Shown: piece after piece, positions 35,095-60,440 of the stretch | Numbering within the stretch: the first letter of the stretch is position 1 | Layout of the letters: each line of letters opens with the position of its first letter | From: Trichormus sp. ATA11-4-KO1 | GTDB taxonomy: Bacteria > Cyanobacteriota > Cyanobacteriia > Cyanobacteriales > Nostocaceae | Length of the DNA: 64,000 nucleotides | NCBI GenBank assembly: GCA_019358915.1 | Contig: JAHHIM010000013.1 | Coordinates: 32,001 to 96,000 of the forward strand | Direction of reading: 5' to 3' | The notes under the pieces: model-generated | Seen by the model: only the letters and a program-made list of their open reading frames with translations | Databases searched by the model: none | What the model was told of the DNA's origin: nothing | Made by a program: the position numbers and the translations under genes

Positions 35095-36267
35095 TTAAAA
35101 TTTGAGGATTTCTCGGTCATAGTTGTCGGGAAGGGGTTCAATTTCCCAGACTATGCCTTCTCCTGCTTCTAAAGCAACTTCTACATAAAGTTGTTCTACG
35201 GCAGTTGTGGCTGTATCTTCATTGTTGGGGAAAGGCTGTAAATCTTCAGTCAGGAGTCTCAGTGTAAAACCACCAGGAATGGCTGCGCCCACTGTAGTGT
35301 GACGCAACTCAAAGCGCCAATATGGAGCGTCGGGTTCGCCTTGTGGTGTAATTAACAGTTCATATAATTGCCCGGCGATCGCTAGTTGGCGTGATAAAGT
35401 TACTCCTGGTGGGATTTCTTCTGCACTCCGCGCCCCCGCCGCACTCAACTGCATATTTAATTTTCCCCAGCCTATGGCTTCTGCCACTTGAGAAACGCCA
35501 CTTTGCAACCATTGGATCACTGAGCGTTGTTCTGGTAGCCCTATGCGGCGTTCATATAAACTTTGTCGCCAGCCGCCATGGGCAATTAATCCTCCCCACA
35601 ATTGAAAAGGAATAGCTAAACGCGGGGTGATAATTTCTGGATTTCCTAGCCGGGTAATGAGGTTTTGGGCTTGTGCCTGTGGTAGGGTGGGCAACTGGAT
35701 AGTAGCGCTACGTGTGACTGCATCTGCACAAAAATCCCGCACCACAGTTAATACACTGATATCAGCAATCATCTCAGTCGCATCCAAAGTATAAGTGCGA
35801 TCGCCTGAGTCATAATTGCCTTGATTTTTGAGTTGTTCATGAGTACAGTAACCCCAAACCCTGACATAACCTTCATCAGGTTCTACTTGGACTGCTAAAT
35901 AGTAATCACCCGCCCAACTCGATAAATCTACCCATTCTTGAGGTACACGTATTTCACTGGAGTCAATAGTTTCACTAGGAACCAAAATAAATCTAGTTGC
36001 GTCTGCTGTAACTGCGGTTCCGTTCACTAGTTCCCAAAAACTAGATAAAGCTGTAGTATTTGGCCAAACCTGGGCTGGGGATGTGAAATCCTCTTGCAAC
36101 CAAGGCAAAACAGCACCTAAACAAAGTTCGTTGAGATAAGCTTGATAACCAGAACTAGGTTGAGAAAAAGATTGACTGTGAAGACGTGCTTGACGTTCTA
36201 CAGTAGCAGGAATTTCCAAAATCAGGTCTGTTGAGGCAAAACTTATGATAGGGGTGTTAGCAGTCAT
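35095..36267 (-). CDS. DUF1822 family protein
   Basis: AYLNELCL..VLPWLQE, WELVNGTA, VPQEWVD..W.GDYYLAVQV, VWGY.TH; typical partner of the upstream sigma-like gene. Confidence 0.85.
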   Translation of the reverse strand: MTANTPIISFASTDLILEIPATVERQARLHSQSFSQPSSGYQAYLNELCLGAVLPWLQEDFTSPAQVWPNTTALSSFWELVNGTAVTADATRFILVPSETIDSSEIRVPQEWVDLSSWAGDYYLAVQVEPDEGYVRVWGYCTHEQLKNQGNYDSGDRTYTLDATEMIADISVLTVVRDFCADAVTRSATIQLPTLPQAQAQNLITRLGNPEIITPRLAIPFQLWGGLIAHGGWRQSLYERRIGLPEQRSVIQWLQSGVSQVAEAIGWGKLNMQLSAAGARSAEEIPPGVTLSRQLAIAGQLYELLITPQGEPDAPYWRFELRHTTVGAAIPGGFTLRLLTEDLQPFPNNEDTATTAVEQLYVEVALEAGEGIVWEIEPLPDNYDREILKF

Positions 36268-36352
36268 GGGTAATACTCCGGGGAACTCTTCAGCTTGTTT
36301 TGGATTTACCAGGGATTGCTATTCCCTAGCACAACAGACGCAAAACTTTGTT

Positions 36353-37531
36353 TTAGCATAGGTTAGAGGCGCTGTAATAGTTGTGCAGCCATTCCTCAAT
36401 CACAGTACTCATACTTGTTAGTAGGTCTGTTGTCACAGAAATATGCAGGGTATCTTTACTCCAATTAGCTAAAGAACGCAGCAAAATTTCCTTGGCTTTT
36501 GTCAGTCGCCGCGAAACGGTATACTGCTTGATTTCTAGTTGTTTGGCAATTGCATCTTGATTCAACTGCTGACTGTAATATAGTTGCAGAATTTGTTGTA
36601 CTTGTGGATCTAGTTGGGCGATCGCCGTCGCTAAAACATGTTTAATTTCAGTTTGTTGCGCAGTCCGCGTTGCTGTTTCTTCTTGGACGATGATTTCCTG
36701 GATCAGGGATTCTTGTTGCGTTCCTGGGAGATTATCAAGTAATTCCCATGAATCATCACCACTTTTGGAGACATTTAGCGAATCTGGGGTGGGATACAGA
36801 TATTTACGCGCTGCTTTTGCCGCACTTAGTAGCCATTTTTCTAAGTTTGCTGGGTCTTCTGACTGAGTACTTTGTGAATTATAAGCTTTAGCGATCGCCT
36901 GCCAAATCTCAGGATCTGGTCGAGAAAGTTGGCGGGAGTTACCAGCTTTTACAGGGACATACAGAGTTTTAAAACATCGCCAAGCTAAAACGTAAGTATT
37001 AATTGTCTCTGGGGATAAACCAGCATTTTGCAAAGACTCTTCCAACCGCTTTTGCGATATTTTGCGTAACAGACCCCAATCTGTACAAATATCAACTTCT
37101 CGACATTGGCGCAAGGTTTCGCGGATAGCACTACCAAAGATCACGCCGGCGTAGCTTTTGAGTGTGCTGCTTTGACTGGGATTAAAACCTTTCAAAACTC
37201 GATCAATTTGGGCGATCGCAATTTGAAAACAGTCTGCAAGTCTGTACTGAGTACTGACAAAGTTAGCAACCGTTTTTTGGGAAGTCCAATAGCAGGGTTC
37301 TTGTAAATAAGCGGCAAGATGTTGCTTGGCTAGTAATTTTGTTTCGGAAATTTGCCAAAACTTATACCAATACAAAACCCAAAAATACTCAGAACTTTCT
37401 TTTGGTGTTTGGTTTAAACAACTTTGAATACTGCGACGCAATCGCGATTCTATCGCCCAACGACTGAAACGGTCTCCGTCAAATTGCACGAAAGTTGAAA
37501 AAATTTCAATGATGCTTTGCCGAGGTTGCAT
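36353..37531 (-). CDS. Cyanobacterial sigma-70-like factor (DUF1822-associated family)
   Basis: HLAAYLQEPCYW and DWGLLRK motifs; C-terminal region-4 HTH (ILQLYY...QDAIAKQLEIKQYTVSRRL). Confidence 0.8.
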   Translation of the reverse strand: MQPRQSIIEIFSTFVQFDGDRFSRWAIESRLRRSIQSCLNQTPKESSEYFWVLYWYKFWQISETKLLAKQHLAAYLQEPCYWTSQKTVANFVSTQYRLADCFQIAIAQIDRVLKGFNPSQSSTLKSYAGVIFGSAIRETLRQCREVDICTDWGLLRKISQKRLEESLQNAGLSPETINTYVLAWRCFKTLYVPVKAGNSRQLSRPDPEIWQAIAKAYNSQSTQSEDPANLEKWLLSAAKAARKYLYPTPDSLNVSKSGDDSWELLDNLPGTQQESLIQEIIVQEETATRTAQQTEIKHVLATAIAQLDPQVQQILQLYYSQQLNQDAIAKQLEIKQYTVSRRLTKAKEILLRSLANWSKDTLHISVTTDLLTSMSTVIEEWLHNYYSASNLC

Positions 37532-37574
37532 AAAAAATGGGAAACCGACCTAAAGGAAGAGTGGAGGCGTTGAA
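37527..37574 (+). promoter_or_regulatory. Shared promoter-like motif, copy 1
   Basis: TGCATAAA(37527)-N13-ACCTA(37548)-N7-AGTGGAGG(37560)CGTTGAA; its CAT is the antisense of the sigma gene start codon. Confidence 0.65.
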
Positions 37575-37656
37575 CAATACCTGCACAAACTTTACTACAA
37601 GGAATGAGGGTCATGTTTCGCCTAGTAATGAAATTTTTAACATTTAATGGAGATTT

Positions 37657-38130
37657 ATGAAAATGTTACAACGTTCTTTAAGTTTTGCTGCTGCTAGTAT
37701 TGCCTTAACTGCTAGTTTAGTTAGTCCGGCAATGGCTGCCCCTGGTGATTTTGTGGGAACATGGGTGAATAAAGATGCTAATACTCGTGGGATTACTCGC
37801 TTAGTGATTACATCAGCAGGTGGTAATAAATTAAACATTCAAGTATTTGGTAAATGTCATCCCCAGGATTGTGATTGGGGTAAAACATCATTAGTTACCT
37901 ATGGTCTCAATGTCCAAGATACTAATCATAGTTATGCCTCAGCCAACTATAACAAGAGTTTTGCTAATTCTTTCTTAACCTTGGGTCATTCTGGTAATCA
38001 AATTATGTTGCAAGGCTACACTCAGTTTTTGGATAATAGTAATCGCCAAAATTACTATTCCCGTGATTACTTTCAAAAGCAAACAAGAGTGAGAGTTCCT
38101 GGTAATATTCGGAGATTGCCCAATTTTTAG
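37657..38130 (+). CDS. Secreted hypothetical protein
   Basis: Signal peptide ending PAMA; FVGTWVN and GKCHPQDCDWG; beta-rich; RBS GGAG. Confidence 0.75.
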   Translation: MKMLQRSLSFAAASIALTASLVSPAMAAPGDFVGTWVNKDANTRGITRLVITSAGGNKLNIQVFGKCHPQDCDWGKTSLVTYGLNVQDTNHSYASANYNKSFANSFLTLGHSGNQIMLQGYTQFLDNSNRQNYYSRDYFQKQTRVRVPGNIRRLPNF

Positions 38131-40067
38131 ATTTGTAATAACCCCTCTGGATTTACGGACAAAAGCGATCGCCTCTGTAATCCCTCTCGATGTAAAATCT
38201 CATTGGCTGCCAATAAGCCACTACTAACTGCCCTTTCCATTAATCCACAAGGGAAGGGCATTTTTACCCAATCTCCAGCAAATAGTAAATTAGATACATC
38301 GGTACTGGTTTCTGGACGTTCGGCATAACTCTTGGGTGGATATCCCGAAAAGTTACGCTGATTGACTAGTTCTCGATGCAGGATTTTGGCTTGTTTTAAC
38401 TCAGGCACAATTTCATAAAGTTCCTGTGCAAATGTTGTTAATAAAGCTGCTTGGGTGGGAAATTCTTTTTCTTTATAACAATAGGCGTGTAACTCTACAA
38501 CACTACCACCAGTGCGTTGTGACCAGTCGATGAATTGTTGTTGAATGCGATGATAAAGGGTGATACTATCAGTTAACTGGTAGCCAGATAAAGAAGTAAA
38601 ATTACTTTGTTTCCACTCAAAATCCCGGTCAAACCAGAAACGACACACAGCAAAAGGATCGGCAATACTCAACTTTTCGACTTGCGATCGCACTTTTTGG
38701 TCTACATCTCCACTAACTCGCTTGAATAGTTGTTGCACACCAGGGACATCGGTAGCAAACACATAATAATCGGCTGTGATTGTTTGTGGTGATAATGATT
38801 CATGATTTACTGCAATCAGTTGCAACTCATCATTTTGTCGTTGCGCTACTTTAAACTTAGGTAAATCTTGTTGAGCCGGCCCTTTTAAAACTTTACCATC
38901 AGCAGTAAACACTGCTCCATGACAAGGGCAATGAAATTTCCCGTCTGCTGCTTGCTTAACAGTACAACCTTGATGAGTACAAGTGAGGGAAATAGCTTCT
39001 TTACTCCCAGATGGTAAAGCAAATACTTCATCAGCCGCTCCAAAATATTCTATCTTGCCATCAGCAATAACTGAGTTTTGTTTTACCCAAAAAGGAACAT
39101 GGTTTTGATTACTGCCAACATAATAATTTAGGGCATCAATCTTACCTGCCACAGCCGGAACTTCACTCACAGTTGCACCAGTGATTATTTTACCCCCATT
39201 ACTTTGAATTGCTCTAGCAATAGGTTGCACTAAACTTGTACCCATATCATCTTTAGTGCCATTAAAAGCAAGTCCTTCTGGATTGCCAAAAAAATAAAAA
39301 TGAAAGAACTGCATGAGTTCTCCCACACTCATCATATCTGGAGCATTTAAGCTGGATTTAGCAAAGGGCAGAAAATACAAATCGTATAAACCCTGGGGAA
39401 ATTCTGTTTTTACCCAGTCAGCCACCGAGATATGATCAAATCGCTGATAGTTTCTTTCTCTTTGAAACCCAGTAATTGCTTGGAAAACTTGTAAATGCTT
39501 GAATTTAGTCAGATTAATTCCCCATTGGAAGCGGTTGGGAGAAGCGATCGCTAAATCTACAATATTCCAAGGAAAAGCCGAATGACTGGGGCGAAATACC
39601 TCTGGTTGGTATTTGGCATCGCGGTAAACTACAGAATAAAAATTTAACGATTGAAAGTTATGATTAATTTCCAGTTCGGAAACTACACTTTTTAGATTAT
39701 AATACTGGGGAAAAAATCCATGAAAGCCATGTTCCATCATGAAGTTTTCACCAGCAGCTTCTATTTGCCAACTAGCAATTTTGCCACCGAGTTGGGGAGA
39801 TTTCTCTAAGAGAGTAACTGCAAACCCTCTTTGACTCAATTCATAAGCACAAGCTAAACCTGCTAAACCACCTCCAACTACTACAACACTTTTATTTTGA
39901 TTTAAGATTCGTGGCAAACTCAGGGTATCTTTTTGAAAAACTGTTGGTTTTGGCTTAGTAAACCGGGAGTATCCTGCTCCTCCGACAATCGCACTAATGC
40001 CAAATAATTTTAGTAGTGTACGACGGGAGACAACAGATGATTCCGGTGAATTAAATAGTAAACTCAT
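38127..40067 (-). CDS. cruE: CrtU/CruE-like carotenoid desaturase/methyltransferase with inserted Rieske domain
   Basis: GGGLAGL FAD motif, EHGFHGFF, Rieske CTHQGC...CPCHG, AGDWV...MERAV; SRRTLLK N-terminus. Confidence 0.72.
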   Translation of the reverse strand: MSLLFNSPESSVVSRRTLLKLFGISAIVGGAGYSRFTKPKPTVFQKDTLSLPRILNQNKSVVVVGGGLAGLACAYELSQRGFAVTLLEKSPQLGGKIASWQIEAAGENFMMEHGFHGFFPQYYNLKSVVSELEINHNFQSLNFYSVVYRDAKYQPEVFRPSHSAFPWNIVDLAIASPNRFQWGINLTKFKHLQVFQAITGFQRERNYQRFDHISVADWVKTEFPQGLYDLYFLPFAKSSLNAPDMMSVGELMQFFHFYFFGNPEGLAFNGTKDDMGTSLVQPIARAIQSNGGKIITGATVSEVPAVAGKIDALNYYVGSNQNHVPFWVKQNSVIADGKIEYFGAADEVFALPSGSKEAISLTCTHQGCTVKQAADGKFHCPCHGAVFTADGKVLKGPAQQDLPKFKVAQRQNDELQLIAVNHESLSPQTITADYYVFATDVPGVQQLFKRVSGDVDQKVRSQVEKLSIADPFAVCRFWFDRDFEWKQSNFTSLSGYQLTDSITLYHRIQQQFIDWSQRTGGSVVELHAYCYKEKEFPTQAALLTTFAQELYEIVPELKQAKILHRELVNQRNFSGYPPKSYAERPETSTDVSNLLFAGDWVKMPFPCGLMERAVSSGLLAANEILHREGLQRRSLLSVNPEGLLQI

Positions 40068-40429
40068 GTTACACAATTAGATCTTCACGATCAATGACTG
40101 GCGTGAAATTAATGACTATCAGCTAATTAAATTTTAAAATTATTTTTGCAGTTTTTTATTGATGCTGAACGAAATTATTTTTGCAGAATTCAGGCAATTG
40201 TCAATACCTGATGATAAATTTTGAGAATAATGCACTTCAACTTTACATAGTCAACGTTTCTATCTAATGGGATGTCAGACAGCAAAAATTGAGTAAACAA
40301 ATTAGAAGATTATTTGATAGTTTAATATATTATTTAATAATTAGCTACCAAGAGTTAAGTAGTTGGTCATGAGCAGAAGCAGAGGAACAGAGGAGAATAT
40401 TAATACAATTTCCCCAATGCCCACTCCCC

Positions 40430-40652
40430 TAATGAAGAGTGCTGAGTTAAAAGTGCTGAGTGCTGAGTTAAAAAACCGCCCACATTCGGCAAGGCTCAGT
40501 GACCACAATTCGCGGGGTATCAACCTTCTGACAGTAATCAGATTCCGCCCACACTTCGGCAAGGCTCAGTGACCACAAGGGACGGGGCTTGTACCGAGTG
40601 CGAAAGTCCTTCCTTCTTCTTCTTTTGACTCAGCACTCAGCACTCAGCACTG
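40430..40652 (+). mobile_element. MITE-like dispersed element, copy 2 (longest)
   Basis: Same ends as 20797-20950; contains two copies of TTCGGCAAGGCTCAGTGACCACAA. Confidence 0.7.
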
Positions 40653-41082
40653 AGTAAGATGAATAGGATACAGCCTTGGGTCTGAACTATACCAGAATTT
40701 TCCTGCGCGATCGCCATAACAATCACACTCAAGGGTCAGAGGTTATGGTTCTGGTAAAGTTGCTAGTGGTCTATGACTTAGTACAGATTTGCGTAAAATC
40801 ATGGCGAATTGAGGTTGGAAATTTAAACGCAAAGGAGCGCAGAGGTACGCAAAGAATTCGCTACGAATTAATGAAATGTTGTACTTAGCTGCTGTGGAGT
40901 GTTGTTTTGCCATTATTTCATCTATCCTAGGAGTGATGTTCATTGAATTCGCCTCAGATTTTGGCTTTGGTTACGGCTGAGGATTGCCAGTCAGTTAACC
41001 CTTTGGTTTACTAAGAGTTGAGATTTGAAGCTACCACTGGTCAGAGATTTTGATATTCCCCACTCCCTACCCCCAAAATTCC

Positions 41083-41856
41083 ATGAAGTATTGGCGTGAA
41101 ACTATAGCTGTAACTCAGCGTATCTTAATTGAACTGTTGCGCCGTAGACGCAGCCTAATTTTTTGGAGTATTTTTCCCATTTCAGTATTAATCCTCAGTG
41201 GATTTATTCTAGTAGAACGGGCAGAATTATCACTAGCTGATGCTTTTGGATATGCTGCACCTTCTACTTTGGTAGGTGCGGCGTTATTTTTTAGCTGTTT
41301 GGGTGGTAGTGTGGCTACTGTTGTTGCCGAAAGAGAACAGCAGACCCTGAAACGTTTATTTATTTCACCCTTAAGTGGCACTTCCTATTTTTTGGGGATT
41401 TTTCTGGCTCATAGTTGCATTGGTATGGGACAGACACTTTTGGTTTATACAATTGCCGCTTTTTGGGGTGCTACTTTTAAGGGTTCTATTTTATTAGGAC
41501 TCACGATTATTTTTATGAGTATCGTGGCTTACGTTGGTTTAGGCTTTATTTTGGGTACTCAATTAGCTCGGCGCATCGAAGATGTCAACGCTTTAGTGGC
41601 TGCGTTTGGAGTTCCTTTATTAATTTTAGGAGGGGCATTTTTGCCTGCTTCACTGTTTCCCCAAAACCTAATTAATATTGCCAAATATAATCCAATTTAT
41701 CATATGAATGAAGCTTTTGTGGGTGTATCATCCCAAGGTTATGAAATCAGCCAAATCACATCACATTTTTGGTTTTTACTAGTGTTTGCATTGGTGATGA
41801 TTGTAGGTGGCTGGTTATCTTATCAACGAATGCTGATAGTAGAAAGAAGACTTTAA
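41083..41856 (+). CDS. ABC-2 type transporter permease
   Basis: About 6 TM helices, EREQQTLKRL, NPIYH. Confidence 0.9.
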   Translation: MKYWRETIAVTQRILIELLRRRRSLIFWSIFPISVLILSGFILVERAELSLADAFGYAAPSTLVGAALFFSCLGGSVATVVAEREQQTLKRLFISPLSGTSYFLGIFLAHSCIGMGQTLLVYTIAAFWGATFKGSILLGLTIIFMSIVAYVGLGFILGTQLARRIEDVNALVAAFGVPLLILGGAFLPASLFPQNLINIAKYNPIYHMNEAFVGVSSQGYEISQITSHFWFLLVFALVMIVGGWLSYQRMLIVERRL

Positions 41857-41867
41857 AATTTTTCAAT

Positions 41868-42764
41868 ATGCTAAAAATTCAAAATTTAAATAAATCATAC
41901 AACACCAGAAAAGTTCTTCAAAATTTGACATTGCATATTGAATCTGGAGAAATTTACGGTTTGCTGGGAGCTAATGGAGCCGGGAAAACCACAACAATCA
42001 ATATTATTTGTAATTTACTCAAGGCTGACAGTGGTAAAGTTACAATTAATCATCAACCAGTTTCTGAAGCGACCAAAAAAATAATTGGTATTGCTCCTCA
42101 AGAGAATTTACTCTATAAAACTCTATCTTGTGAGGAGAATTTGCAATTTTTTGCTGATATTTATGGACTAAATCGGGAAACACGACAAAAACAAATAAAA
42201 GCAACTTTGGCAGCAGTAAATTTATTAGACAGAGCCAAAAGTCCAGTGGAAACCCTCAGTGGTGGGATGAGGCGGCGGTTAAATATAGCGGTTGCTCTGG
42301 TACATCAGCCACAGTTAGTAATTTTAGATGAACCAACTACGGGGTTAGATATTGAAGCACGATATGAAATCTGGGAGTTGATTCGGCAATTAAAAAATCA
42401 GGGGATTACCGTTTTGTTAACAACTCATTTATTAGACGAAGCAGAGCGACTTTGTGATAGAATTGGTATTCTCAAAAATGGTCAGGTTCTGGCAGAGGGG
42501 AGTTTAGCCGAGTTACGCACTTTGATTCCAGCTTCCGAAATTTTAGTATTACAAACTGCACAAATAGAACAAGCGATCGCCCGCGCCCAATCATATGGTT
42601 TTACGCATAAATATTATGGTAATGAACTAGCTTTTTGGTTACCAGAATCTCTAGAATTAAAAGAAATTATTGCCCGGTTTGAGGGAATAGAAATTGATGC
42701 GATCGCACGTCAGTCCGTGCGCTTAGAGCATATTTATTTGGAAGTAACACAAGCAGGCGCGTAG
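41868..42764 (+). CDS. ABC transporter ATP-binding protein
   Basis: GANGAGKT, LSGGM, LDEPT, TTH. Confidence 0.95.
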   Translation: MLKIQNLNKSYNTRKVLQNLTLHIESGEIYGLLGANGAGKTTTINIICNLLKADSGKVTINHQPVSEATKKIIGIAPQENLLYKTLSCEENLQFFADIYGLNRETRQKQIKATLAAVNLLDRAKSPVETLSGGMRRRLNIAVALVHQPQLVILDEPTTGLDIEARYEIWELIRQLKNQGITVLLTTHLLDEAERLCDRIGILKNGQVLAEGSLAELRTLIPASEILVLQTAQIEQAIARAQSYGFTHKYYGNELAFWLPESLELKEIIARFEGIEIDAIARQSVRLEHIYLEVTQAGA

Positions 42765-42814
42765 CGACTTCCGGGAAGGAAGACCGCCTGCGCAGGTTAA
42801 AAATCTCTTAATGC

Positions 42815-45800
42815 TTAACTTTCTGACTCTTCTTGAGAGAACTTTTTATGGATGGTTTTAGTTTGTGTCCCATTAGCAGCAATGGCCGTCATTAGATAGT
42901 CAATTAAGTTGTCTGAAAAGGGAACACGCAAATGGAAACTACCATCTGATTTGAGTGTGATGGGATTACCACCAACAGTTACTGTTGCACCAGGCTCTGT
43001 TGCTCCGTGGATAATTAACTCAGCATCTGCTACAAACCAGAAATCGGCTTGGGGACGACTAAAGACGCGCACCCTGGGGGAACGGGCAATTGTCTCCCAG
43101 CGATCGCCTGCTGTTACATAGCCAATTTCGGCAATATAGTCACGATCGCTCGTGGGAATGGCGACATAGCGATCGCGTGTGATTTCCTCACATTCATACT
43201 GCTGCAAAAGCTGGGGAGGATGATAACTCAAATCCAAATCTGTGACATCATACAGGCGCAGAGATAATCGATATATGCCCGCATTTCGCAGTGCTTGCTT
43301 GCTAGTTTCGGCAATATGCCAAGCAGTATAAGCCCACTTGGCAGTCCGGGGTTTGAGGATAATACTACTTTCTTCATCTGGATTGTGCAAGTGCACGGAT
43401 GTTTCGTCTGCTGTCGGTGGATTTTCCACTGTAATTTCTGCTAGGGGAAGACTAAAGACGCGCACCCTGGAGGAACGCGCAATTGTCACCCAGCGATCGC
43501 CTTCAGTTATATAGCCTATTTCAGCAATGTAATCGCGATCGCTTGTGGGAATCTCTAAATAATGTTCTGTGATTCCTGACTCAATTTCGTATTGCTTGAC
43601 TAGTTGGGGAGTTTGATAACTTAAGTCTAAATCCGTGACATCATATAACCGCAGTGCCAATTGGGAGATACCTGCATTTTGCAATGCTTGTTGGCAAGTT
43701 TCTTCTATGTACCAAGTTGCATAAGCCCATTGAGGGTTCCGGGGTTTGAGGGTGATACTTCTTTCCCCCTCGATATTGAGTAAGGGATCATCTGTGGCTA
43801 GGGGAAGACTAAAGACGCGCGCCCTGGGGGAGCGAGCAATTGTCATCCAGCGATCGCCTTCAGTTATATAGCCAATTTCGGCAATGTAGTCGCGATCGCT
43901 TGTAGGAATCTCTAAATAATGTTCTGTGATTCCTGACTCAATTTCGTATTGCTTGACTAGTTGGGGAGTTTGATAACTTAAGTCTAAATCTGTGACATCA
44001 TATAACCGCAACGCCAATTGGGAGATACCTGCATTTTGCAATGCTTGTTGGCAAGTTTCTTCTATGTACCAAGTTGCATAAGCCCATTGAGGGTTCCGGG
44101 GTTTGAGAGTAATACTTCTTTCACCCTCGATATTGAGTAAGGGATCATTCCCAGTATTATAGGCTTGTTCCTCTGATTCGGTGTTGTCCTGATTACCAGA
44201 TATATTAGCCCATGTCCCAACGCCTGTTTCCTGTGACAGGTTAGATCCTGTTACATAGTCTATGGGTTCAGCCGCATCCGCTACTATATTCAATGTATCT
44301 TCGGGAATATCTGGGAATGTGGATTGTGAAGTAGTGACTGTCGGCGTAGGCTCCACATTTGATGTTTTTTCCTCTGCTACAGGTGAGATGATTTCATGAG
44401 TATGACTGAATTCTGTTGTATCACTGGTTTCTTCAATATTAGACCAGACGTTAGCTCCTGCTACTGCATCGCCAGCGACAGATGTAGTTTTAGTGATATC
44501 CTCAATTAAATCAGATTCTACTTGGTGTTGTTCTGCCGTCAATTCACCAGAGATATGCTGATATTCTTCATTAGATTTTACTTCAGTCATATCTGAGTCT
44601 GCTGGAGGAGTAACCTTAGATACATCTGGTATTTGAGGATATGAAGTATTAACTACAGCTGCTGGTGCTTCTATATCCCAAGGAGATTCGCTAAAATCAT
44701 AAGAGTTTATTTCAGTATAATTATTTAAATTTGTAACTTCATTAGGTGCATTATTATCTGCTCCTGTACCGGAAACTGTAGACGAAATAACTGCCCCCGA
44801 TCCTGCTACTAAGGAGGCAGCGTTGGATGTTGCTTCGGCTGGAGGTTCACTAACGGCAGGAGCAACATTCGTATCATTTGTTGCTATTTTTTCCCCATCG
44901 CCTGAAGGTAAATTTGGCATGTTATTTGCAGACTCAGTTGCCCACAAGCGTGACCGGAAAAACCACACCAGTAATCCGCCTATTCCCGCCGCAGGTAAAA
45001 GAAACCACCAAATTGGTATTTGTCTAGGACTAGAAGTTGTTTGTAAAGGAGGAGTGTCAGACGGCTGTTGGGCAACTGAAGTGGTGGCATCTGGTGTAGG
45101 ATTTGTTACAAGGAACGATGTTTGTGATTCTCCTCTAGCGATCGCCTCTGCTTCCGCAATTCTGCCTTCTTCTATAGCTTGCTGTCCTGGCGGTGCGAGT
45201 GTAAAACCGAGAAAGCTGGCTACACTAGGGCTAGGATTTTTTCTGTAAGCATAAACTAAAGGCTGGGAGTAGAGATATTGAGGATCATCTGGCAAGGCTT
45301 GCTCTAACGGGATCACTCGCACATTTGGCAGCTTTGATACATGATGAGCCATTGCATAGCTGATGCCGTCATTGCCCAATTGTTTAACGATTTCTGCGGT
45401 GTCATCCTCGTCAAGTTGAGTAGCATTAGAGCCTGTAGAAAATTGAGCAGCCTTGAAAGCCGGATAAGTGCGAAACGTATTGCGGGTATCACTGGTGGCT
45501 GGGCGATCAATTACCCGAATCTTACCCCCAGGAGCTCCCAATTGTGACCAATCTGTAATTCCTCCCCGGAAAATTCTCGCGAATTGCCTATCAGTCAAGC
45601 TGCCCTGAAAAGGATTATCTACACCCACGATAATCGCAATTTTTTCTCGGTGAATCGGCACTTGCTCCAGACCTTGCGCTTGTTCTTGCGGAGTCAAGCC
45701 ACGAGCGATCGCGACTACATCGACGGTTCCATCTAGCAAAGCTTGTATTGCTACATCAGCGCCGTTAGCAGCAACTTCCACATTTGTACCAAAAAACTGT

Positions 45801-50047: not shown

Positions 50048-50170
50048 CCTTGGCGACCCTCTGCGTGAACCTCTGCGCTCCTCTGCGTTTAAAAAGATGA
50101 TCTCACGTAAAGGCAAGCCAGTGCGCCCTGCGGGTTTCCCGACTTGTAGCAACTGGCGCACAAAGACGCA
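50048..50170. repeat. Composite intergenic repeat (CCTCTGCG array plus SDR-like insert)
   Basis: CCTCTGCGCTCCTCTGCGTTTAAA recurs inverted at about 40822-40845; GCCAGTGCG...GCAACTGGCG hairpin at about 50117-50158. Confidence 0.55.
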
Positions 50171-50300
50171 ATAAGTTTTGCTCATTCGGGTTGAGTTTCC
50201 TTAAACAAAAAAATAACAGCTTGCTATTCTCAATATTATTTAAATCCACGCGGATTTTACCCAAGATAATATAAAATCAAGGCTTACAAAAAAAATTATC

Positions 50301-50894: not shown

Positions 50895-51009
50895 TAAATA
50901 GTTTACAGACAACTCGCCGCATTCTCGGTATTGTCTATGTCGGCTTTCTTCTCACCTGATTTCCACCCTTCCGCAGCCGATAAAAATGGTTAAGCCCAAA
51001 TGGTATAAA

Positions 51010-52290: not shown

Positions 52291-53543
52291 TAAATAGGGG
52301 TATCTTGCAACACGGTTTTTGAGACAATCCTGGTTTTCTTGCGATCGCTATCCGATAATTCTCCACCAGATTGGAGTTGAGTGGCAGAAGTTTGTAACAC
52401 CGTTGCTGCACCTTGATCTCCCATTTGCAACGCTGTTTTAGCCGCAGTTTGCAGCATTGTCGCTGCACCAGTGCGATCGCCCTGTTGCAACTTCGCCTCA
52501 GCTAACTGAGTTTGGCGATACTTGGCTAATGCCAAAATCGACTGTTGCACACGAGGATTGATCTCTGGTTGGTAAACCCCAGTGACATTGGCATAAACTG
52601 GGATGTTAGCGGTAAATAACCCCAGCTGATTTTGTGCAGGGTCATCATAACGAACTTGTACATTAGCGATCGCTTGTTTACCTTCTGGCAACTGTCCCAG
52701 ATAAATATTAGCTAAAATCACCCGTTCTGCATCTTTCATTAAATCTCCCAAGCGGACAGCAAAGCGTCCATCTGCTTCTTGCTGTATGGGTAACTCAATT
52801 GTGTCTGGGGAAACCTGAGCAATAGGTTTGAGTTCTGCTAGTCGAATGTTAGGCATTAAGGACAATAATAAATAGGCATTAGTCAATCCCACCGTTTGCA
52901 TGCGGTTAAACAGGCGATTAAATTCATCTATTGCCTGGTCTGGTCGTTGAATGTAAGACAAAGTACCCAAACCCGCATCAGCGATTTTTTCTAAAACATC
53001 TTGGTTCCACTTATCGCCAAATCCCAAGGTGTTCAAAGTCAAATTGTAACCAGTAGCCAGTTGAGCAAACTTCAAACAACGTTGATTATCACCGTGTTCA
53101 TTTTCACCATCAGTTAACAAAAAAGCTTGAGAAACAGTTTCTTTTTTCCCCTTTGCTAACTCCTCAATACCCAAACGCAAACCTTCATCAATTGCTGTAC
53201 CACCATCGGCAGCTAAACGATTAATTTGCTTTTTGATATGTTCGGGATCTTCAATCAATTGATTCGGTACCAAGACCTTAGCACGGTGATCAAAAGCGAC
53301 AACACTCAGGCGATCGCCAGGCTTGAGTTTATCAACTAAATTAGTGGCTGCTTTCTTCACAGTTTCTAAAGGTCGCCCATTCATCGAACCACTATGGTCG
53401 AGAATTAAGCATAAATTCAGTGGCACATTCCGGTCTTGAACTTCCGCGATCGCGGAAATCGAAATTGCCAACTGACGTTGACTACTCGGTTGACGCGCGT
53501 CCAAATTAGCATCATTGAGGATAGGCTGCAAATTGACCTTCAT
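52290..53543 (-). CDS. VWA-domain protein (paralog 1)
   Basis: MIDAS DHSGSM, GGT, LLTDGEN. Confidence 0.9.
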   Translation of the reverse strand: MKVNLQPILNDANLDARQPSSQRQLAISISAIAEVQDRNVPLNLCLILDHSGSMNGRPLETVKKAATNLVDKLKPGDRLSVVAFDHRAKVLVPNQLIEDPEHIKKQINRLAADGGTAIDEGLRLGIEELAKGKKETVSQAFLLTDGENEHGDNQRCLKFAQLATGYNLTLNTLGFGDKWNQDVLEKIADAGLGTLSYIQRPDQAIDEFNRLFNRMQTVGLTNAYLLLSLMPNIRLAELKPIAQVSPDTIELPIQQEADGRFAVRLGDLMKDAERVILANIYLGQLPEGKQAIANVQVRYDDPAQNQLGLFTANIPVYANVTGVYQPEINPRVQQSILALAKYRQTQLAEAKLQQGDRTGAATMLQTAAKTALQMGDQGAATVLQTSATQLQSGGELSDSDRKKTRIVSKTVLQDTPI

Positions 53544-53619
53544 AACCCAAAATTCCTAGTTCAGGATATATATATAAATAACTTCAAAGCGCCAAATCAG
53601 CACTACGGAAAAATTAGGG

Positions 53620-53672
53620 CACAGGTGACAGGCTTCGGCGTGAGCGCTCAGTCGAACGGTGACAGGTGACAG
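53620..53672. repeat. SDR-type element inserted in a GGTGACA heptamer array
   Basis: CTTCGGCGTGAGCGCTCAGTCGAAC (53633-53657) is flanked by GGTGACA units; relatives at about 9541, 31989 and 34979. Confidence 0.7.
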
Positions 53673-53797
53673 AGAGATTGCTCTTTTGCTCCTTTGCCCC
53701 ATTTCCTTGAATTAGCGAGAAATCCACACTTGATGTGAGCTAGCATCGCGCTAGGATGTATTACAGTTAACGGCATACTTTCAGGCGATCAGTTGCT

Positions 53798-54460
53798 ATG
53801 GACATTTCCCCCATCAAGGCTGTTCAAGCCCCATATTACGGTGATAACTTCTACCGGACACCACCGCCAGATTTACCTTCCTTATTGTTGAAAGAACGAA
53901 TTGTCTATCTGGGAATGCCACTGGTGCCTGCGGTCACGGAATTAATTATCGCCGAATTGCTGTATTTGCAGTCCGACGATCCGGAGAAGCCGATAAAAAT
54001 CTACATTAACTCTACTGGTACTTCCGGTTATAGTGGCGAACCCATTGGCTTTGAAACCGAAGCCTTCGCCATTTATGACACAATGAAATATATCAAGCCC
54101 CCCATTCACACTATTTGTATTGGTTCGGCAATGGGTATGGCAGCAATGCTACTCAGTGCTGGCACAAAAGGTTGCCGCGCCAGTTTGCCCCACTCTTCTA
54201 TTATCCTGCACCAGCCTAAGAGCTACGCCCAAGGTCAAGCAACGGATATTCAAATTCGGGCAAAGGAAGTTTTGGTAAATAAAGTGTCGATGGTTGATAT
54301 TTTGTCTTACACCACCGGACAGCCACCAGAAAAAGTTACCAAAGATATGGATCGTCTCTTCTACATGACTCCCTATCAAGCTCAGGAATACGGTTTGATT
54401 GACCGGGTTTTTGAAAAAGAAGAACTGGCCAATCCCCCACTACCAGCGAGTGTGCTTTAG
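53798..54460 (+). CDS. clpR: Clp protease non-catalytic subunit ClpR
   Basis: RTPPPDLPSLLLKERIVYLG; catalytic Ser replaced (AMGMA); insertion GTSGYSGEPIGFETE. Confidence 0.9.
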   Translation: MDISPIKAVQAPYYGDNFYRTPPPDLPSLLLKERIVYLGMPLVPAVTELIIAELLYLQSDDPEKPIKIYINSTGTSGYSGEPIGFETEAFAIYDTMKYIKPPIHTICIGSAMGMAAMLLSAGTKGCRASLPHSSIILHQPKSYAQGQATDIQIRAKEVLVNKVSMVDILSYTTGQPPEKVTKDMDRLFYMTPYQAQEYGLIDRVFEKEELANPPLPASVL

Positions 54461-54590
54461 TGAGTGCTGAGTGCTGTCTTGGGGTCTCCCCCGCCGCAGG
54501 ATGCGCGCAGCACTGTAGTGGAGCATCTGGCGTTGCGAGTTAAGAACTTGCTCACAATTCCCCAATTAATTATCAAGTGGAGTAACGAAA

Positions 54591-55184
54591 ATGCCTATAG
54601 GTGTTCCTAAAGTTCCTTACCGGATGCCCGGAGGACAATATACAGATTGGATTAGCATTTATGATCGCCTTTATCGCGAACGGATTATTTTCCTGGGGCG
54701 AGATGTTGATGATGAAATTGCTAATCAAATTATTGCCGTCATGCTGTATCTGGATTCAGATGATCCGGGTAAGGATATTTATTTATACATCAATTCCCCC
54801 GGTGGTATGGTCACTTCCGGCATGGCGATTTTTGACACCATGCAACACATCAAATCAGATGTAGTCACAATTTGCGTCGGTTTAGCTGCCTCAATGGGTT
54901 CATTTTTGCTGGCAGCTGGCACCAAGGGTAAACGGATGGCATTGCCTCATTCTCGGATTATGATTCACCAGCCTTCTGGTGGTACCCGTGGGCAAGCAAG
55001 CGATATCGAAATTGAAGCCAGAGAAATTCTCCGGATTCGTCACCAGCTCAATGGGATTTATGCTGAAAAGACTGGTCAGCCTATAGCCAAAATTGAAAAA
55101 GACATGGATCGCGACTTCTTCATGTCTGCTGCTGAAGCCAAAGAATACGGTTTAATTGACCGTGTGATTGAAGAACGACCCTAG
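54591..55184 (+). CDS. clpP: ATP-dependent Clp protease proteolytic subunit (ClpP3 type)
   Basis: [23 protein letters not shown]. Confidence 0.95.
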
Positions 55185-55373
55185 GAGTAGGGAGTGGGGA
55201 CAAGGAGAGATTACTAATATTAAGTCCTTCCACCCATCCCCCCATTCCCCATTCCCCATTCCCAAAAACCGTCTAGCGTGAACGAAAAATTAGCAGATTA
55301 GTCTTTATAATTAAAACCTTAAGGCTGGAAGCTAAAAGCTGAAAGCTAAATATTCGATAGCTGATAGATCAAG

Positions 55374-55997
55374 ATGGATCTTGGAGATTGCTACCGTTTA
55401 TTGGGTTTAAGGTCGGGAGCCTCTTTTGCTGATGTCAAAGCGTCTTACAGACGACTGGCGCAGCAATATCATCCCGATATCAACCCAAGCGACACCAAAG
55501 CTAAAGATAAGTTTATTGCTTTGACAGAGGCTTACAGATTCCTTTTAACGGTAGTACCTTCAGAGGAGATAGCCCAACCGTCAAGTCAATCTTCTGTATC
55601 TGGAAGTGGTGGCATCAACGCCACCCACCCAGAAACAGCACCAACAATCACTGTGACGGATGAAAAACCGCCCACTCAAAAGCTGCCTAATATTGTAGAA
55701 ATAGAGCAACGACTGAAGTGGAAAACTTATGAACAACTGCAACGGTTCTTAAAAGAAAGAAGATTTCCCCAAGCGATCGCTCTGGCGGAAGCTTTAGCGG
55801 TACGGTTACCACAAGATGCAGAGGTACGCCAATGGCAGGCGGTTGCTTATCAAATTTGGGGACGGGCGTTAATTGCCGAACATCAACTGTTGAAGGCCAG
55901 AATTTATCTCAAAAAAGCCCTAAAAACAGACCCTAACAACAAGGCTCTGTGGCTTGAGGTGCAGAGAGATTTCCAACGATTGGAGCAGATTTTTTAA
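55374..55997 (+). CDS. J-domain protein with C-terminal TPR-like repeat
   Basis: HPD motif, KF..L.EAY; TPR-like ARIYLKKALKTDPNN. Confidence 0.88.
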   Translation: MDLGDCYRLLGLRSGASFADVKASYRRLAQQYHPDINPSDTKAKDKFIALTEAYRFLLTVVPSEEIAQPSSQSSVSGSGGINATHPETAPTITVTDEKPPTQKLPNIVEIEQRLKWKTYEQLQRFLKERRFPQAIALAEALAVRLPQDAEVRQWQAVAYQIWGRALIAEHQLLKARIYLKKALKTDPNNKALWLEVQRDFQRLEQIF

Positions 55998-56546
55998 AAC
56001 TCTTGAGTGCCAGTCAAAATATAACTTTATTTATTAAATAAGACTAAATCTGCCTCTCATCCTTATTGTTGATTATTGATAATATTTTTTAATATCAACA
56101 CAAGGAATTGATGGTTTCTCAAAGCAATTTTAACGTGAATTCAATGAACCTTACCCCAACCCCTCTGGGACACTCAGAGGGGCAAAAATATCCTGGTTTT
56201 CAACGAAGTCAGAGGGAACACGGAAGACGGAAGAAGTGATATTAAATAAGGAAGTTTTGAGGCGGGATGGATACTAAAATTAGGTATATTTATTGGTGTT
56301 GTCTATTTTCGTGAGGGATTATTACTTAAATGCAGCCTAAAACGGTTAATTTAAAGATGATTTAAAAAATCATAATATTAATAAATATATGTAAACTTAA
56401 CTTTTTTGTTACAAAAGAGACTCAGTAAATTATATTTTATCACAGACAATATGTTTATCAGGTTGCTTTCGTAGTAATGAACCAAATTTGCTATGTAGAG
56501 TCTGAAGAACATGAAAGGGTTGCAAAAATAAGTTGAGGATCAGCGC

Positions 56547-57488
56547 ATGAAATTCGGAATTGATATAGGGCATAACTCTCCTCCAGATACAGGCGCAAGA
56601 GGGATAAAAATTGAGGATGTTTTAACCTTAGATGTAGGCAACAGAGTTATGTCTAAGTTAAGAGCTTTGGGGCATGAAGTAATACCATGTAAACCAGATA
56701 GGTCTAGTTCAGTCACGAATTCACTGTTTCAAAGAATCAATACGGCAAATACTAACAGGGTTGAGGTTTTTGTCTCAATACACTTTAATGCTTTTAATGG
56801 TCAAGCTAATGGTACGGAAGTATTTGCAGCTAGTGATACTGGCAGAAGAATTGCTCAACCAGTGTTAAATGAAATTGTCAGATTAGGATTTTTTAATCGT
56901 GGGGTTAAGAGTGGTTCCCACTTATACGTCCTGAGAAATACTAATATGCCTGCGATACTTGTAGAATGCTGCTTCATCGATTCACCAAGAGATATGAATA
57001 TTTTTGAATCGGAAGCAACGGCTAATGCGATCGTCAAAGGCTTGACAGGTACAGTTCCTAGCGCTCCTGTGAATCCCGTTCCCGATGAAGAACTAAATAC
57101 CGATACCACAGTCATCAGACTGCAAAAAGCCTTAAATCGACTAAAAATAACCGATAGAAATGGTCGTGCTTTGGTAGAAGATAACATCACAGGGCCATCA
57201 ACGAACTCTGCCACAGTAAACTTCCAAAATATTGCTGGGATTCAACCAACTGGAGTTGCAGACACAAATACATGGAATGCGATTAATCTGATTTTAGCCA
57301 AACGCATCATCAGACCCAACCATGCTGGAGGCCCAGTTGTGAGATACATACAATACCGTGTCGGGGTTGATGTTGATGGCGTTTATGGTCCCCAGACAGG
57401 GGAGGCAATTAAGAGATACCAAAGGCAAAATGGTTTACTTGCTGATGGAATTGTCGGAGGAATGACCTGGCAAAAATTAATTGGTTAG
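56547..57488 (+). CDS. N-acetylmuramoyl-L-alanine amidase (Amidase_3) with peptidoglycan-binding domains
   Basis: IDIGH, E, SIHFNA, PAILVECCF; DGVYGPQT and DGIVG..TW repeats; no signal peptide evident. Confidence 0.92.
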   Translation: MKFGIDIGHNSPPDTGARGIKIEDVLTLDVGNRVMSKLRALGHEVIPCKPDRSSSVTNSLFQRINTANTNRVEVFVSIHFNAFNGQANGTEVFAASDTGRRIAQPVLNEIVRLGFFNRGVKSGSHLYVLRNTNMPAILVECCFIDSPRDMNIFESEATANAIVKGLTGTVPSAPVNPVPDEELNTDTTVIRLQKALNRLKITDRNGRALVEDNITGPSTNSATVNFQNIAGIQPTGVADTNTWNAINLILAKRIIRPNHAGGPVVRYIQYRVGVDVDGVYGPQTGEAIKRYQRQNGLLADGIVGGMTWQKLIG

Positions 57489-57493
57489 CTTGA

Positions 57494-58194: not shown

Positions 58195-58248
58195 TGCATA
58201 AACCACAAAAGGTCAACCTATTGAGTAAGTGAAGGGGTTGAAACCCAA
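58195..58248 (+). promoter_or_regulatory. Shared promoter-like motif, copy 2
   Basis: TGCATAAA(58195)-N13-ACCTA(58216)-N7-AGTGAAGG(58228)GGTTGAAACCCAA. Confidence 0.7.
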
Positions 58249-58278: not shown

Positions 58279-58938
58279 ATGACCATGAAATTCCGTCACT
58301 TAACTAGTTCTTTGCTAACAGCTACCGCACTTTTGACCTCCTCTCTCCCAGCTTTCGCAGGGCCGTTTGATGTTCAACCTGCTGGTATATTCAAACCTGC
58401 TACAGTTATCCCCGGAGCCGTTATTGGTAATGGAACCCCCAAAACTCCTGCTCACGCACCCAGCAACCCAGTAGGTAATAGTGAAATTCAAGGATTAGGT
58501 GACCATCAATCTTGGGTTGACCAACAAACTCTAGCAAAAGACCCCCGCGCCTTGTGTAGTGATATTGGTTTAGGCAACAACACTCGCAACAGTGCTAGCA
58601 AAGTTGCTCTAGCAACCTCTGTCAGCACTCGTTCTAGTTCTGCAAGTAATCACAAAAATGGTGGTGGCGGTGGTGTGAGCATCCTCGGTATTGGTGTCAG
58701 TGGTAGCGGTTCCAGCCAAGGTAGCAAAAACGAAAGTAATTCCCGCGACCAACGGATCAACCGCAACGAAGAAGAAAGCAGCAGCTCCTCCACAGTAGTC
58801 CAAGGCAAGAATTGCGATGCTTTTGTTAACTCTGCTGCTGCTAGAGACATGAACTACCAAGACAACCTCACTCGCCGCTATGAAATTAAAACTGGTCGTC
58901 GAGGACAACAGGTCAACCAACTGCTGGAAAATCCGTAA
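58279..58938 (+). CDS. Secreted Ser/Gly-rich hypothetical protein (start 58279 or 58285)
   Basis: Signal peptide ending PAFA; two Cys flank a Ser-rich segment centred on GGGGGVSILGIGVSGSGS. Confidence 0.75.
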   Translation: MTMKFRHLTSSLLTATALLTSSLPAFAGPFDVQPAGIFKPATVIPGAVIGNGTPKTPAHAPSNPVGNSEIQGLGDHQSWVDQQTLAKDPRALCSDIGLGNNTRNSASKVALATSVSTRSSSASNHKNGGGGGVSILGIGVSGSGSSQGSKNESNSRDQRINRNEEESSSSSTVVQGKNCDAFVNSAAARDMNYQDNLTRRYEIKTGRRGQQVNQLLENP

Positions 58939-59098
58939 TATATGGGGGTAAAGGGTACGCGGTCGGTTGTCTCCAATTACCAATTCTTAATTGCTATGTG
59001 GACTTTGAGTCTAAATTGGTTAATTTTTAATTTTTAATTGTGGAAACGCCGGGGGGTAAATACCCTGGCAATTGCTTTATTTATCCTCAGGAGAAACT

Positions 59099-59536
59099 AT
59101 GAAAAGCAGGCTAGGTAGAGGAATTATTATTCTTAGTACCACCTTGTTACTATCTGTAACATCTGTGGTAAATGCCCAAACACCATCTCGGAGAATTCGG
59201 GACTCTCAAATTCTACCGTATTTATTGGATAATCCTAATCAAAACTCATGGGTGAGAGTGCGTTGCGTTCCCAGTCATGGGCAGAAATTAGACTACAAGC
59301 GAGGTATTATCAGAGATAGACTCTTGCGCCCAAATGTTAGCGATCGCAATGGTACTGTCACCATAGAAATAGAAGGCAGTTGTCGGGATGTGAGAATTCG
59401 CGCGCAAGACGGCTCAGACTTTTTAGATTACCCCATCTACAATCCCTACATAGATGGCAATCATCACGATTTTGGCGATTCCTGGCTGACTCGTCCAGGC
59501 TCTGGGTGGTATTGGCTACTGCAACGTCAACGATGA
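59099..59536 (+). CDS. Secreted hypothetical protein
   Basis: RBS AGGAG; signal peptide ending VNA-Q; two Cys; aromatic C-terminus. Confidence 0.7.
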   Translation: MKSRLGRGIIILSTTLLLSVTSVVNAQTPSRRIRDSQILPYLLDNPNQNSWVRVRCVPSHGQKLDYKRGIIRDRLLRPNVSDRNGTVTIEIEGSCRDVRIRAQDGSDFLDYPIYNPYIDGNHHDFGDSWLTRPGSGWYWLLQRQR

Positions 59537-59571
59537 GGTTATGAAAAATTGGCACATGGGGACAATGAATC

Positions 59572-59610
59572 AATTCAAAATTCAAAATTCAAAATTCAAA
59601 ACTCAAAATA
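59572..59610. repeat. STRR heptamer array (TTCAAAA)n
   Basis: About 5 tandem copies. Confidence 0.8.
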
Positions 59611-59699
59611 AATTCTGAAATTTACCCTTTGGGTAAATTTTGAAATTCAACCTTGATTTTTCTGCTCAGGACTCAGGACTCAGCACTTTGACAACAGAC

Positions 59700-59753
59700 T
59701 GCATAAACTCAAAATAACTAACCTATTGATTGAGTGAAGGGGTTCAAGCCCAA
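59700..59753 (+). promoter_or_regulatory. Shared promoter-like motif, copy 3
   Basis: TGCATAAA(59700)-N13-ACCTA(59721)-N7-AGTGAAGG(59733)GGTTCAAGCCCAA. Confidence 0.7.
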
Positions 59754-59786
59754 AACAAACTACTGAAATCACAGGGAAAAACGATT

Positions 59787-60440
59787 ATGAAAATGCAAAT
59801 ATTATTGAGTCTTGCTTGTTCTATTTCTTGCTTGGGTTCTGTTACACTGCCAGCTAACGCTCAACCTGTTCCTACTGAGCCTACTGTGCAACCTCAGTCC
59901 CCAAGCTTCAGCGAAGAAATTACCGTCCCTCAAGATACAGCGATTATCGTTTCTTTTCCTGCACCTGTTACCATAGATGTTGGACAAAAAAAGGATTATC
60001 CCTTGACGGTTCCTTTAGCTAATGCTATCCAAGATGCTCAAGGCAATACCATAGCATCTGAAAATACTCCGGTAACTATTGTTCTCCAGCCCACAGATGG
60101 TGGCGCTAAAATTGTCGCCCAATCTTTAGTAATCAATGGTCGCATTGTCTCAATTAAAGCATCAAGTCAAACAATTCCCGGCACTACTATTACTCACAAA
60201 CGAGCTAACGACAAAGCTGTTGAAAATGGTTCAATTTGGGGCAGAATTGGTGGCAGTACCTTGGGCTTTTTAAACCAAGGTGATCCAGATCAATTTGACC
60301 GAGGCGCTATGTTGGGGAGTGCTGTAGGATTAATCTCAGGCTTACGTTCTGCTGAAAATACCCGTGTTGTGCAGATTCCCCAAAGCAGTGTGTATGTTTT
60401 GTCCCTTGAAGCACCTATCAGTTTGTCTGCTCGCCGCTAG
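59787..60440 (+). CDS. Secreted protein, possibly TrbI/VirB10-like fold with glycine-zipper hairpin
   Basis: Signal peptide ending ANA-Q; VPQDTAI.V...PLTVPL...I.D..G..I; G...G.IGG...GAMLGSAVG; closing strand YVLSLEAPISL. Confidence 0.6.
   Translation: MKMQILLSLACSISCLGSVTLPANAQPVPTEPTVQPQSPSFSEEITVPQDTAIIVSFPAPVTIDVGQKKDYPLTVPLANAIQDAQGNTIASENTPVTIVLQPTDGGAKIVAQSLVINGRIVSIKASSQTIPGTTITHKRANDKAVENGSIWGRIGGSTLGFLNQGDPDQFDRGAMLGSAVGLISGLRSAENTRVVQIPQSSVYVLSLEAPISLSARR

Follow-up and report, generated by a model that had tools for sequence, protein, structure and literature searches.

A three-part sequence motif was found ahead of three genes for putative exported proteins in a 64,000-nucleotide (nt) stretch of the cyanobacterium Trichormus sp. 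ATA11-4-KO1 (contig JAHHIM010000013.1, positions 32,001 to 96,000; this whole stretch is called the window, and coordinates are numbered from its first letter unless a contig or locus is named). The motif lies next to the gene of a large sigma-70-like factor, which is followed by a gene of the DUF1822 family. We consider it probable that the motif is a conserved three-part promoter of the adjacent sigma factor, that this factor is held by the DUF1822 protein acting as an anti-sigma, and that the promoter drives a few exported proteins.

Motif copies, target genes and conservation

Exact matches to the motif occur on the plus strand at 37527..37574 (copy 1), 58195..58242 (copy 2) and 59700..59747 (copy 3), as a first-pass annotation made from the letters alone had read them, with the spacing of the boxes fixed and the spacers different; none of 100 shuffled controls contained a match. 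The -35 box, the -10 box and the predicted transcription start site (TSS) fall at 37527-37534, 37548-37552 and 37563 in copy 1, at 58195-58202, 58216-58220 and 58231 in copy 2, and at 59700-59707, 59721-59725 and 59736 in copy 3, the last two copies having a short 5' hairpin. The motif starts 130, 84 and 87 nt ahead of the respective ATG codons, in line with the 84-130 bp first reported. The assembly as a whole (5.97 Mb in 73 contigs) has only these three sites, and allowing up to 6 mismatches over the 27 specified positions revealed no other. When a bigger hidden regulon was sought in this genome with a weight matrix trained without it, the three copies scored 42.9-49.9 and only two weak extra sites appeared (20.0 and 19.2), with nothing above 18 in the reversed-genome control. 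The two-box core TGCATAA-N15-CCTA alone gave 4 matches in this genome against 0-5 at other spacings, which is no excess; what is exceptional is the three-box form.

The -35 box of copy 1 overlaps the start codon of the sigma gene on the opposite strand, as the first-pass annotation had noticed, and the same placement is seen in most orthologous loci. As TGCAT here equals the start of the sigma gene (ATG CA) read on the other strand, copy 1 is partly constrained by coding and alone proves little. Short tandem repeats (TCAAAAT-like and CTCAGGA-like units) were observed immediately 5' of copy 3, at 59540-59700. The two weak motif-like sites lie on contig C65 (112639, minus strand), 5' of a caspase-domain/STAND gene that has homologs behind the motif in two other loci (L086 and L106), and on contig C6 (10037, plus strand), 44 nt ahead of a signal-peptide-like open reading frame (ORF).

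The genes downstream of the copies, all on the plus strand, are target 1 (37657..38130, 157 amino acids, aa), target 2 (58279..58938, 219 aa) and target 3 (59787..60440, 217 aa). The three proteins start with basic-hydrophobic-AxA segments, read heuristically from the sequence and not by a signal-peptide predictor, and they are putatively exported. They had been described as mutually unrelated, which blastp comparison confirmed (E at least 0.09), and none of them matched a family in Pfam or NCBIfam (over cut-off) or a structure in the PDB. Atlas matches to clusters of avidin-like (0.84) and aerolysin-like (0.79) proteins fall short of the 0.9 mark and serve as leads only. The motif is retained ahead of nine homolog loci of target 2. 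A candidate fourth gene (59099..59536, plus strand, 145 aa, signal-peptide-like) follows target 2 beyond a terminator-like hairpin at 59048-59069, and may or may not share the transcript from copy 2. In many relatives the homolog of target 1 is the second gene, behind a gene for a 264-aa exported protein that this genome does not have, an absence that accounts for the longer distance (130 nt) at copy 1. This 264-aa protein of no known family, divergent from sigma, is the commonest Nostocaceae target (L061:5130-5927 and 26 other sites).

Among 301 genomes of the order, 23 contain the motif with one mismatch (control 0) and 25 contain a looser pattern (control 1); in the family, 77 of 251 genomes have a third pattern (control 0), and there are 1-4 sites per genome. 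As the sites of relatives are megabases apart in closed genomes, the clustering of three copies in the window is not the product of local duplication. The regulon proposed at first sight stands as a real promoter set, but as a tiny one that is not physically clustered in relatives. The core TGCATAA-N15-CCTA precedes ORFs of 25 protein families at 98 distinct sites, and 8 sites have no ORF in reach. Heuristic signal peptides were assigned to 80% of 90 downstream ORFs, covering 17 of the 25 families; the share among 3679 control ORFs was 24%. This supports the earlier expectation that the motif would be enriched upstream of signal-peptide genes in related genomes and that its output would be mostly exported proteins. 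Domains among the downstream proteins include RTX repeats, beta-propellers, beta-lactamase-like domains, a lysozyme and a Mo-nitro_C protein.

Unrelated housekeeping DNA fills the ~20 kb from 38127 to 57488. Two features in this interval were read by eye: a minus-strand gene at 42815-46036 with a phosphate-binding-protein-like N-terminus and three repeated C-terminal domains in near-exact internal duplication, and tandem paralogous von Willebrand A-like proteins of 426 and 417 aa at 51010-53543 (minus strand).

The adjacent sigma factor and the promoter variants

The sigma gene (36353..37531, minus strand) encodes a 392-aa large alternative sigma-70-family factor, the single member of its family in this genome. 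The protein passes TIGR02937 (105 bits, cut-off 42.9), matches Sigma70_r4 (PF04545, 33.5 bits) and carries the conserved sigma2 residues D100, Q103, Y127-A128 and R141. A model built from 146 sequences had a predicted local distance difference test (pLDDT) score of 92.3, and an earlier fold from 37 sequences (63.8) was not used. All the top Foldseek matches to this model are sigma factors, with sigma2 matching regions 1.2/2 of RpoS (Z 10.5, root-mean-square deviation 2.5, 96 residues) and sigma4 matching region 4 of sigmaE (Z 8.8, deviation 1.3, 69 residues); the sigma-70-like identity first assigned to this gene was thus borne out by both family profiles and fold. The protein consists of sigma2 (~2-147), a ~100-aa helical insertion (148-252), a linker, sigma4 (291-359) and a C-terminal helix. 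SANT-like matches of the insertion domain (Z 6.5-6.7) are inside the noise range for helical domains.

The factor shares with extracytoplasmic function (ECF) and group 3 sigma factors the sigma2 and sigma4 fold, a cognate promoter by the gene and a downstream partner gene. It differs from typical ECF factors in being twice the size and in having a soluble partner; whereas classical ECF factors have sigma2 and sigma4 joined by a short linker, a folded insertion and a linker separate the domains here, and instead of an autoregulatory promoter the core TGCATAA-N15-CCTA faces away from the sigma gene 76 times and toward it once among 160 sigma loci, so that there is no autoregulation in this clade. 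In several lineages, 19-329 nt separate the core from the sigma start codon. A conserved third promoter element at -3..+5 is a further difference from both groups.

The adjacent sigma factor is the most likely reader of the promoter. Homologs of it were found in 109 of the 301 order genomes, 26 of which contain the motif, against 2 of the 192 without a homolog; of these two exceptions, one carries a broken sigma piece and the other a distant homolog 20 kb away. In the family sample, where 184 of 251 genomes have homologs, the motif was found in 64 of 80 genomes with a close ortholog (E at most 1e-170), in 10 of 104 with distant homologs only and in 3 of 67 with no homolog at 1e-60, two of the last three carrying broken sigma copies and one nothing. 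These counts support the link of the motif to the neighboring sigma-like gene that had been suggested at the outset, and they become 56 of 80 against 2 of 67 (hand count) when the site overlapping the sigma start is excluded. Similarly, target 3 is present in 83 of the 184 sigma-positive genomes and in 3 of the 67 sigma-negative ones, being broken in 2 of these 3. When 20 target-3 genes missed by the strict pattern were checked, 14 had a degenerate motif (six with ACATA).

The promoter also varies along with the sigma clades, as seen in a midpoint-rooted FastTree tree from which proteins shorter than 330 aa and duplicates were excluded. CCTA sites are confined to one large branch, two sub-branches of which have no site near sigma; in a neighboring branch, 8 of 10 sequences have CGTA and none has CCTA, and distant members have CCGATA-like words facing their own sigma gene, the CCGA variant facing sigma 7:1, mostly in distant clades. 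TGCATAA is common to all clades and it is the -10 words that differ (CCTA, CATA, CGTA, CCGATA). Correspondingly, the sigma4 recognition helix KQYTVSRR is kept throughout, at 80% identity to the query (sigma2.3-2.4: 57%), a conserved sigma4 helix and a clade-varying sigma2.4 that match the fixed -35 and the clade-specific -10. In one Nostoc branch (L056, L077, L078, L081, L082, L099), short tandem repeats inserted right after TGCATAA overwrite the sigma-adjacent promoter. CGTA-type promoters by paralogous sigma genes precede a Nif11-leader precursor, a LanM lanthipeptide synthetase and an ATP-binding cassette exporter (L267:5892, minus strand, on a plasmid of Nostoc sp. ATCC 53789; L180), a radical-SAM gene plus exporter (L186) and RTX-repeat proteins (L184, L188).

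A close described likeness is HetZ, presented in passages of a 2026 PNAS paper (PMC13342950) as an insertion-bearing ECF sigma with the inhibitor PatU3. Like the present factor, HetZ as described there is an ECF-type sigma of ~400 aa bearing insertions, and its soluble, co-transcribed inhibitor touches sigma4, as DUF1822 is predicted to do; both promoters have a hexamer, a 16-bp spacer and a four-base -10; however, the HetZ promoter is TCCGGA/TGnA, against TGCATA/CCTA here, and has hundreds of sites, against 1-4. The idea that the sigma factor is HetZ was rejected, as NF037963 misses the sigma gene, the family hidden Markov model misses HetZ and hhalign gave 14.5%, with no profile matching beyond sigma4; DUF1822 as PatU was likewise rejected (profile probability 0.1%). 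The genome has its own hetZ, hetZ' and patU. No HetZ structure was among the matches of the fold searches, and it is sequence and profiles that set the sigma factor apart from HetZ.

Box assignment and start site

A start site for this promoter was taken from published data through orthology. The homolog of target 3 in Nostoc sp. PCC 7120 is BAB72524.1 (212 aa), which we take to be alr0566 from the order of accessions, as confirmed by length and gene order. By sequence, length and synteny target 3 is its ortholog: alr0566, all0565 and alr0564 are tabulated at 212, 146 and 397 aa, and the same ORF lengths and order are found in a relative (G532). No PCC 7120 ortholog is listed for target 2.

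A +1 at motif position 37 had been predicted beforehand from the A at position 26 (-11) and the pyrimidine-purine step T36-G37. In differential RNA sequencing, the start of alr0566 has a 45-nt 5' untranslated region (PMC10287535 Data Set S1), this length being the ATG position minus the TSS, as checked on alr7311. In G532, whose protein is 92.5% identical and whose gene order is the same, the motif-to-ATG distance of 81 nt would give 45 nt with a start at position 37 and 48 nt with a start at position 34. The fitted TSS puts TGCATA at -36..-31, CCTA at -14..-11 after a 16-bp spacer, and GAAGG at +1..+5. By this fit to published data through the ortholog, +1 would be the G of GAAGG, at 37563, 58231 and 59736. 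The first-pass assignment of TGCATA as -35 and CCTA as -10 is thus maintained, and its start is moved from the A of AGTG to the G of GAAGG, 3 nt downstream. Two other interpretations, a reverse-strand sigma-70 promoter with TAGGTT as -10 and a leaderless GTG start, were dropped because gene orientation and the fitted TSS contradict them. The supplements of PMC3610870 contain no TSS table with sequences.

The third box was then assessed on 67 sites collected without regard to it, many of them orthologous, of which 54 agree with AGTGAAGG in at least 6 of 8 positions; at shifted positions the rate is 0.9%. In 57 of 60 sites, GAAGG follows the -10 A at a distance of 11-12 nt, and a shorter spacer displaces it along with the -10. 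The start is followed by an excess of hairpins (z < -1.5 in 10 of 25 families, against 0 of 25 for the promoter part). A hairpin as the cause of the GAAGG conservation was rejected, since positions +1..+3 are mostly unpaired (0.26-0.38) and pairing does not explain the conservation of G-A-A. A sequence-specific reading of the start region is a candidate for the most unusual feature of this promoter.

The DUF1822 partner, rival explanations and implications

Behind the sigma gene, and co-oriented with it as first described, the DUF1822 gene (35095..36267, minus strand) encodes a 390-aa protein (PF08852, 420 bits) predicted to be a soluble anti-sigma, its highest 19-residue hydropathy being 1.35. 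A gene of this family is found immediately behind sigma in 76 of 80 loci. A model of the complex of both proteins scored 0.83, against 0.00 for the best of 3 controls, with a partner pLDDT of at least 85 and with runs agreeing in at least 79% of contacts; the score mark, which 116 of 157 solved complexes and 2 of 215 mismatched pairs attain, is roughly applicable, as own alignments were used here. The model supports binding between the two proteins, and with it the regulatory role that had been proposed for DUF1822. Its interface involves the N-terminal half of the DUF1822 protein (residues 9-214) and residues 134-146, 156-200 and 335-352 of sigma, and covers both DNA-reading surfaces of the latter (134-146 and 335-348), which suggests that in the modelled complex DUF1822 occludes them as an anti-sigma would. 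Binding would in that case inhibit the factor.

The sigma/DUF1822 pair itself is in print, which qualifies the first-pass claim of an undescribed regulon: passages of an eLife 2021 article (PMC8195603) catalog an ECF sigma with DUF1822, labeled there a TPR protein, in EACC2-caspase neighborhoods, and in these passages no promoter, targets or anti-sigma role are given for the pair. The promoter and the regulon were not found described; no study of them or of the sigma homologs was found in the literature, subscription papers lying outside the search, and DUF1822 does not appear in the main text of PMC7826278 on ECF groups. The EACC2-caspase systems contain the same pair as here with an adjacent caspase/CHAT gene, whereas among close-ortholog loci with enough flank DUF1822 is behind sigma in 54 of 56 and an adjacent CHAT gene in 0 of 56. 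In the window, an ilvD-like gene is convergent at the pair and no caspase/CHAT gene is adjacent. With two query proteins and CHAT assigned by Pfam, a CHAT gene was found after the pair in 11 of 70 mid-range loci and 13 of 22 distant loci. Elsewhere in this genome two further DUF1822 genes stand before CHAT proteins (C73:158242-161564 and C6:111873-116526), one behind a response regulator and the other behind a 237-aa protein whose match to sigma factors is weak. DUF1822 is followed by a DUF4870 membrane protein of 155 aa (for example L037:8495-8959) in 39 of the 60 loci of close orthologs, in 1 of 71 mid-range loci and in 0 of 22 distant ones; this protein was not found in this genome by tblastn, and it is a candidate sensor or a case of plain synteny.

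In the mechanism that we propose, the sigma4 helix (KQYTVSRR) of the 392-aa factor in RNA polymerase would read TGCATA(AA) at -36..-29 and sigma2 would read ACCTA at -15..-11, with melting at TA (-12/-11). Transcription would start at the G of T|GAAGG, and the transcript would usually open with a short hairpin. DUF1822 would bind sigma, cover sigma2.4 and the sigma4 recognition helix, and block access to DNA until a signal frees the factor. The release would in other clades most likely depend on the adjacent CHAT protease, which in this clade is not next door. The output would be three or four exported proteins.

In PCC 7120, the presumed counterparts are all3581 (391 aa, the length of the ortholog clade) and the DUF1822-sized all3580. 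The sigma homolog alr7311 (49% identical) is also followed by a DUF1822 gene. In passages of PMC11119718, alr7311, alr1376 and all3581 are listed by domain content as unclassified 'SigJ.1' (region-4-only), with no function, promoter or partner given there. Expression of alr0566 rises after nitrogen removal (log2 2.33 at 9 h and 3.21 at 24 h), and so does an antisense RNA to all3580 (2.32 and 1.97; PMC10287535). A start site of all3580's own lies within the end of all3581 (TU02354/TU02355 in PMC10287535 Data Set S1). No divergent target was found at the all3581 locus, and no motif in the vicinity of alr7311.

Several observations weigh against the promoter, sigma factor and anti-sigma being joined as we propose. 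In the table of PMC10287535 all3581 is in no transcription unit, though alr0566 is transcribed and the paralogs alr1376 and alr7311 do lie in such units; moreover, all3581 was matched to the sigma factor by length, domain and neighbor only, not by sequence, and its upstream neighbor is co-oriented. The TSS fit comes from one gene and the spacing of its closest relative, other relatives giving 45-51 nt for the matching start codon. As the genomes are kin, the co-occurrence counts are suggestive and not a test, and they overstate the link. Of the 80 ortholog genomes, 16 have no strict motif match, genome G457 has a motif site and no sigma homolog, and 6 of the 20 target-3 genes checked, from two related genera, have no upstream motif, 5 of these 6 genes lying in genomes that retain sigma. 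Heuristic signal peptides are absent from 8 of the 25 target families, and some families with a single member are probably chance matches. Finally, the interface residues of DUF1822 show no higher conservation than the rest (0.48 against 0.55).

Some of these points fit a different reading, in which the adjacent sigma merely co-occurs and the promoter belongs to a different factor, be it a family paralog, a group 2/3 sigma, or sigmaA with an activator. The induction of alr0566 without a unit for all3581 in the same table and the genome with a site and no homolog would be expected from it, and the sigma4 helix common to paralogs makes cross-talk possible. We nevertheless judge it unlikely, as this genome has a single member of the family, and the motif and target 3 vanish along with sigma. 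The motif is also unlike both the HetZ promoter and the SigJ J-Box GGGaAtacT given in passages of PMC6495340, and none of the HetZ chromatin immunoprecipitation peaks listed for alr0566 in passages of PMC13342950 covers its promoter.

It is very unlikely that sigma and promoter act as described while DUF1822 is a co-activator, a chaperone or a protease adaptor. The complex model gives a contact and not its sign, DUF1822 genes also precede CHAT proteins without this sigma, and the TPR label mentioned above would suit such a role; however, an interface on 134-146 and 335-348 is incompatible with promoter binding. A downstream, co-oriented gene is the typical position of an anti-sigma. As to a dispersed repeat, the end of a mobile element or a local duplication with no promoter function, the three copies within 23 kb and a near-identical, repeat-like variant recurring in three genomes of one genus are outweighed by fixed boxes with differing spacers, constant orientation and distance to start codons, copies megabases apart in closed genomes, the lack of any Rfam match (and so of a structured RNA family) in 35000-60600 and a mapped TSS at the expected place, which make this explanation extremely unlikely and largely refuted, in particular as the position-independent repeat against which the first-pass annotation had warned.

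Beyond the regulon of the adjacent sigma factor, we tentatively advance a wider interpretation, which we regard as possible but doubtful. These factors may form a separate cyanobacterial sigma class with a three-element promoter, whose start site (A..T|GAAGG, -3..+5) would be read, probably via the insertion; swaps of -10 specificity (CCTA, CATA, CGTA, CCGATA) may run separate export programs for small secreted, RTX-repeat and lanthipeptide products; DUF1822 may be a new soluble anti-sigma fold, released by CHAT proteins in some clades; and in the protease-less clade the release may occur via the nitrogen-induced antisense RNA to the DUF1822 mRNA.

With a start site fitted, an inhibitor likely and a PCC 7120 target named (alr0566, with the presumed pair all3581/all3580), the system comes within reach of routine testing, and a common but uncharacterized gene switch, made of DUF1822 and an unclassified sigma family, becomes directly testable. 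With few natural sites (1-4) and a promoter that is both long and rare, such a sigma factor would provide an orthogonal switch for gene expression in cyanobacteria, and its promoter sequence may serve as a marker for co-regulated secreted products in other genomes.

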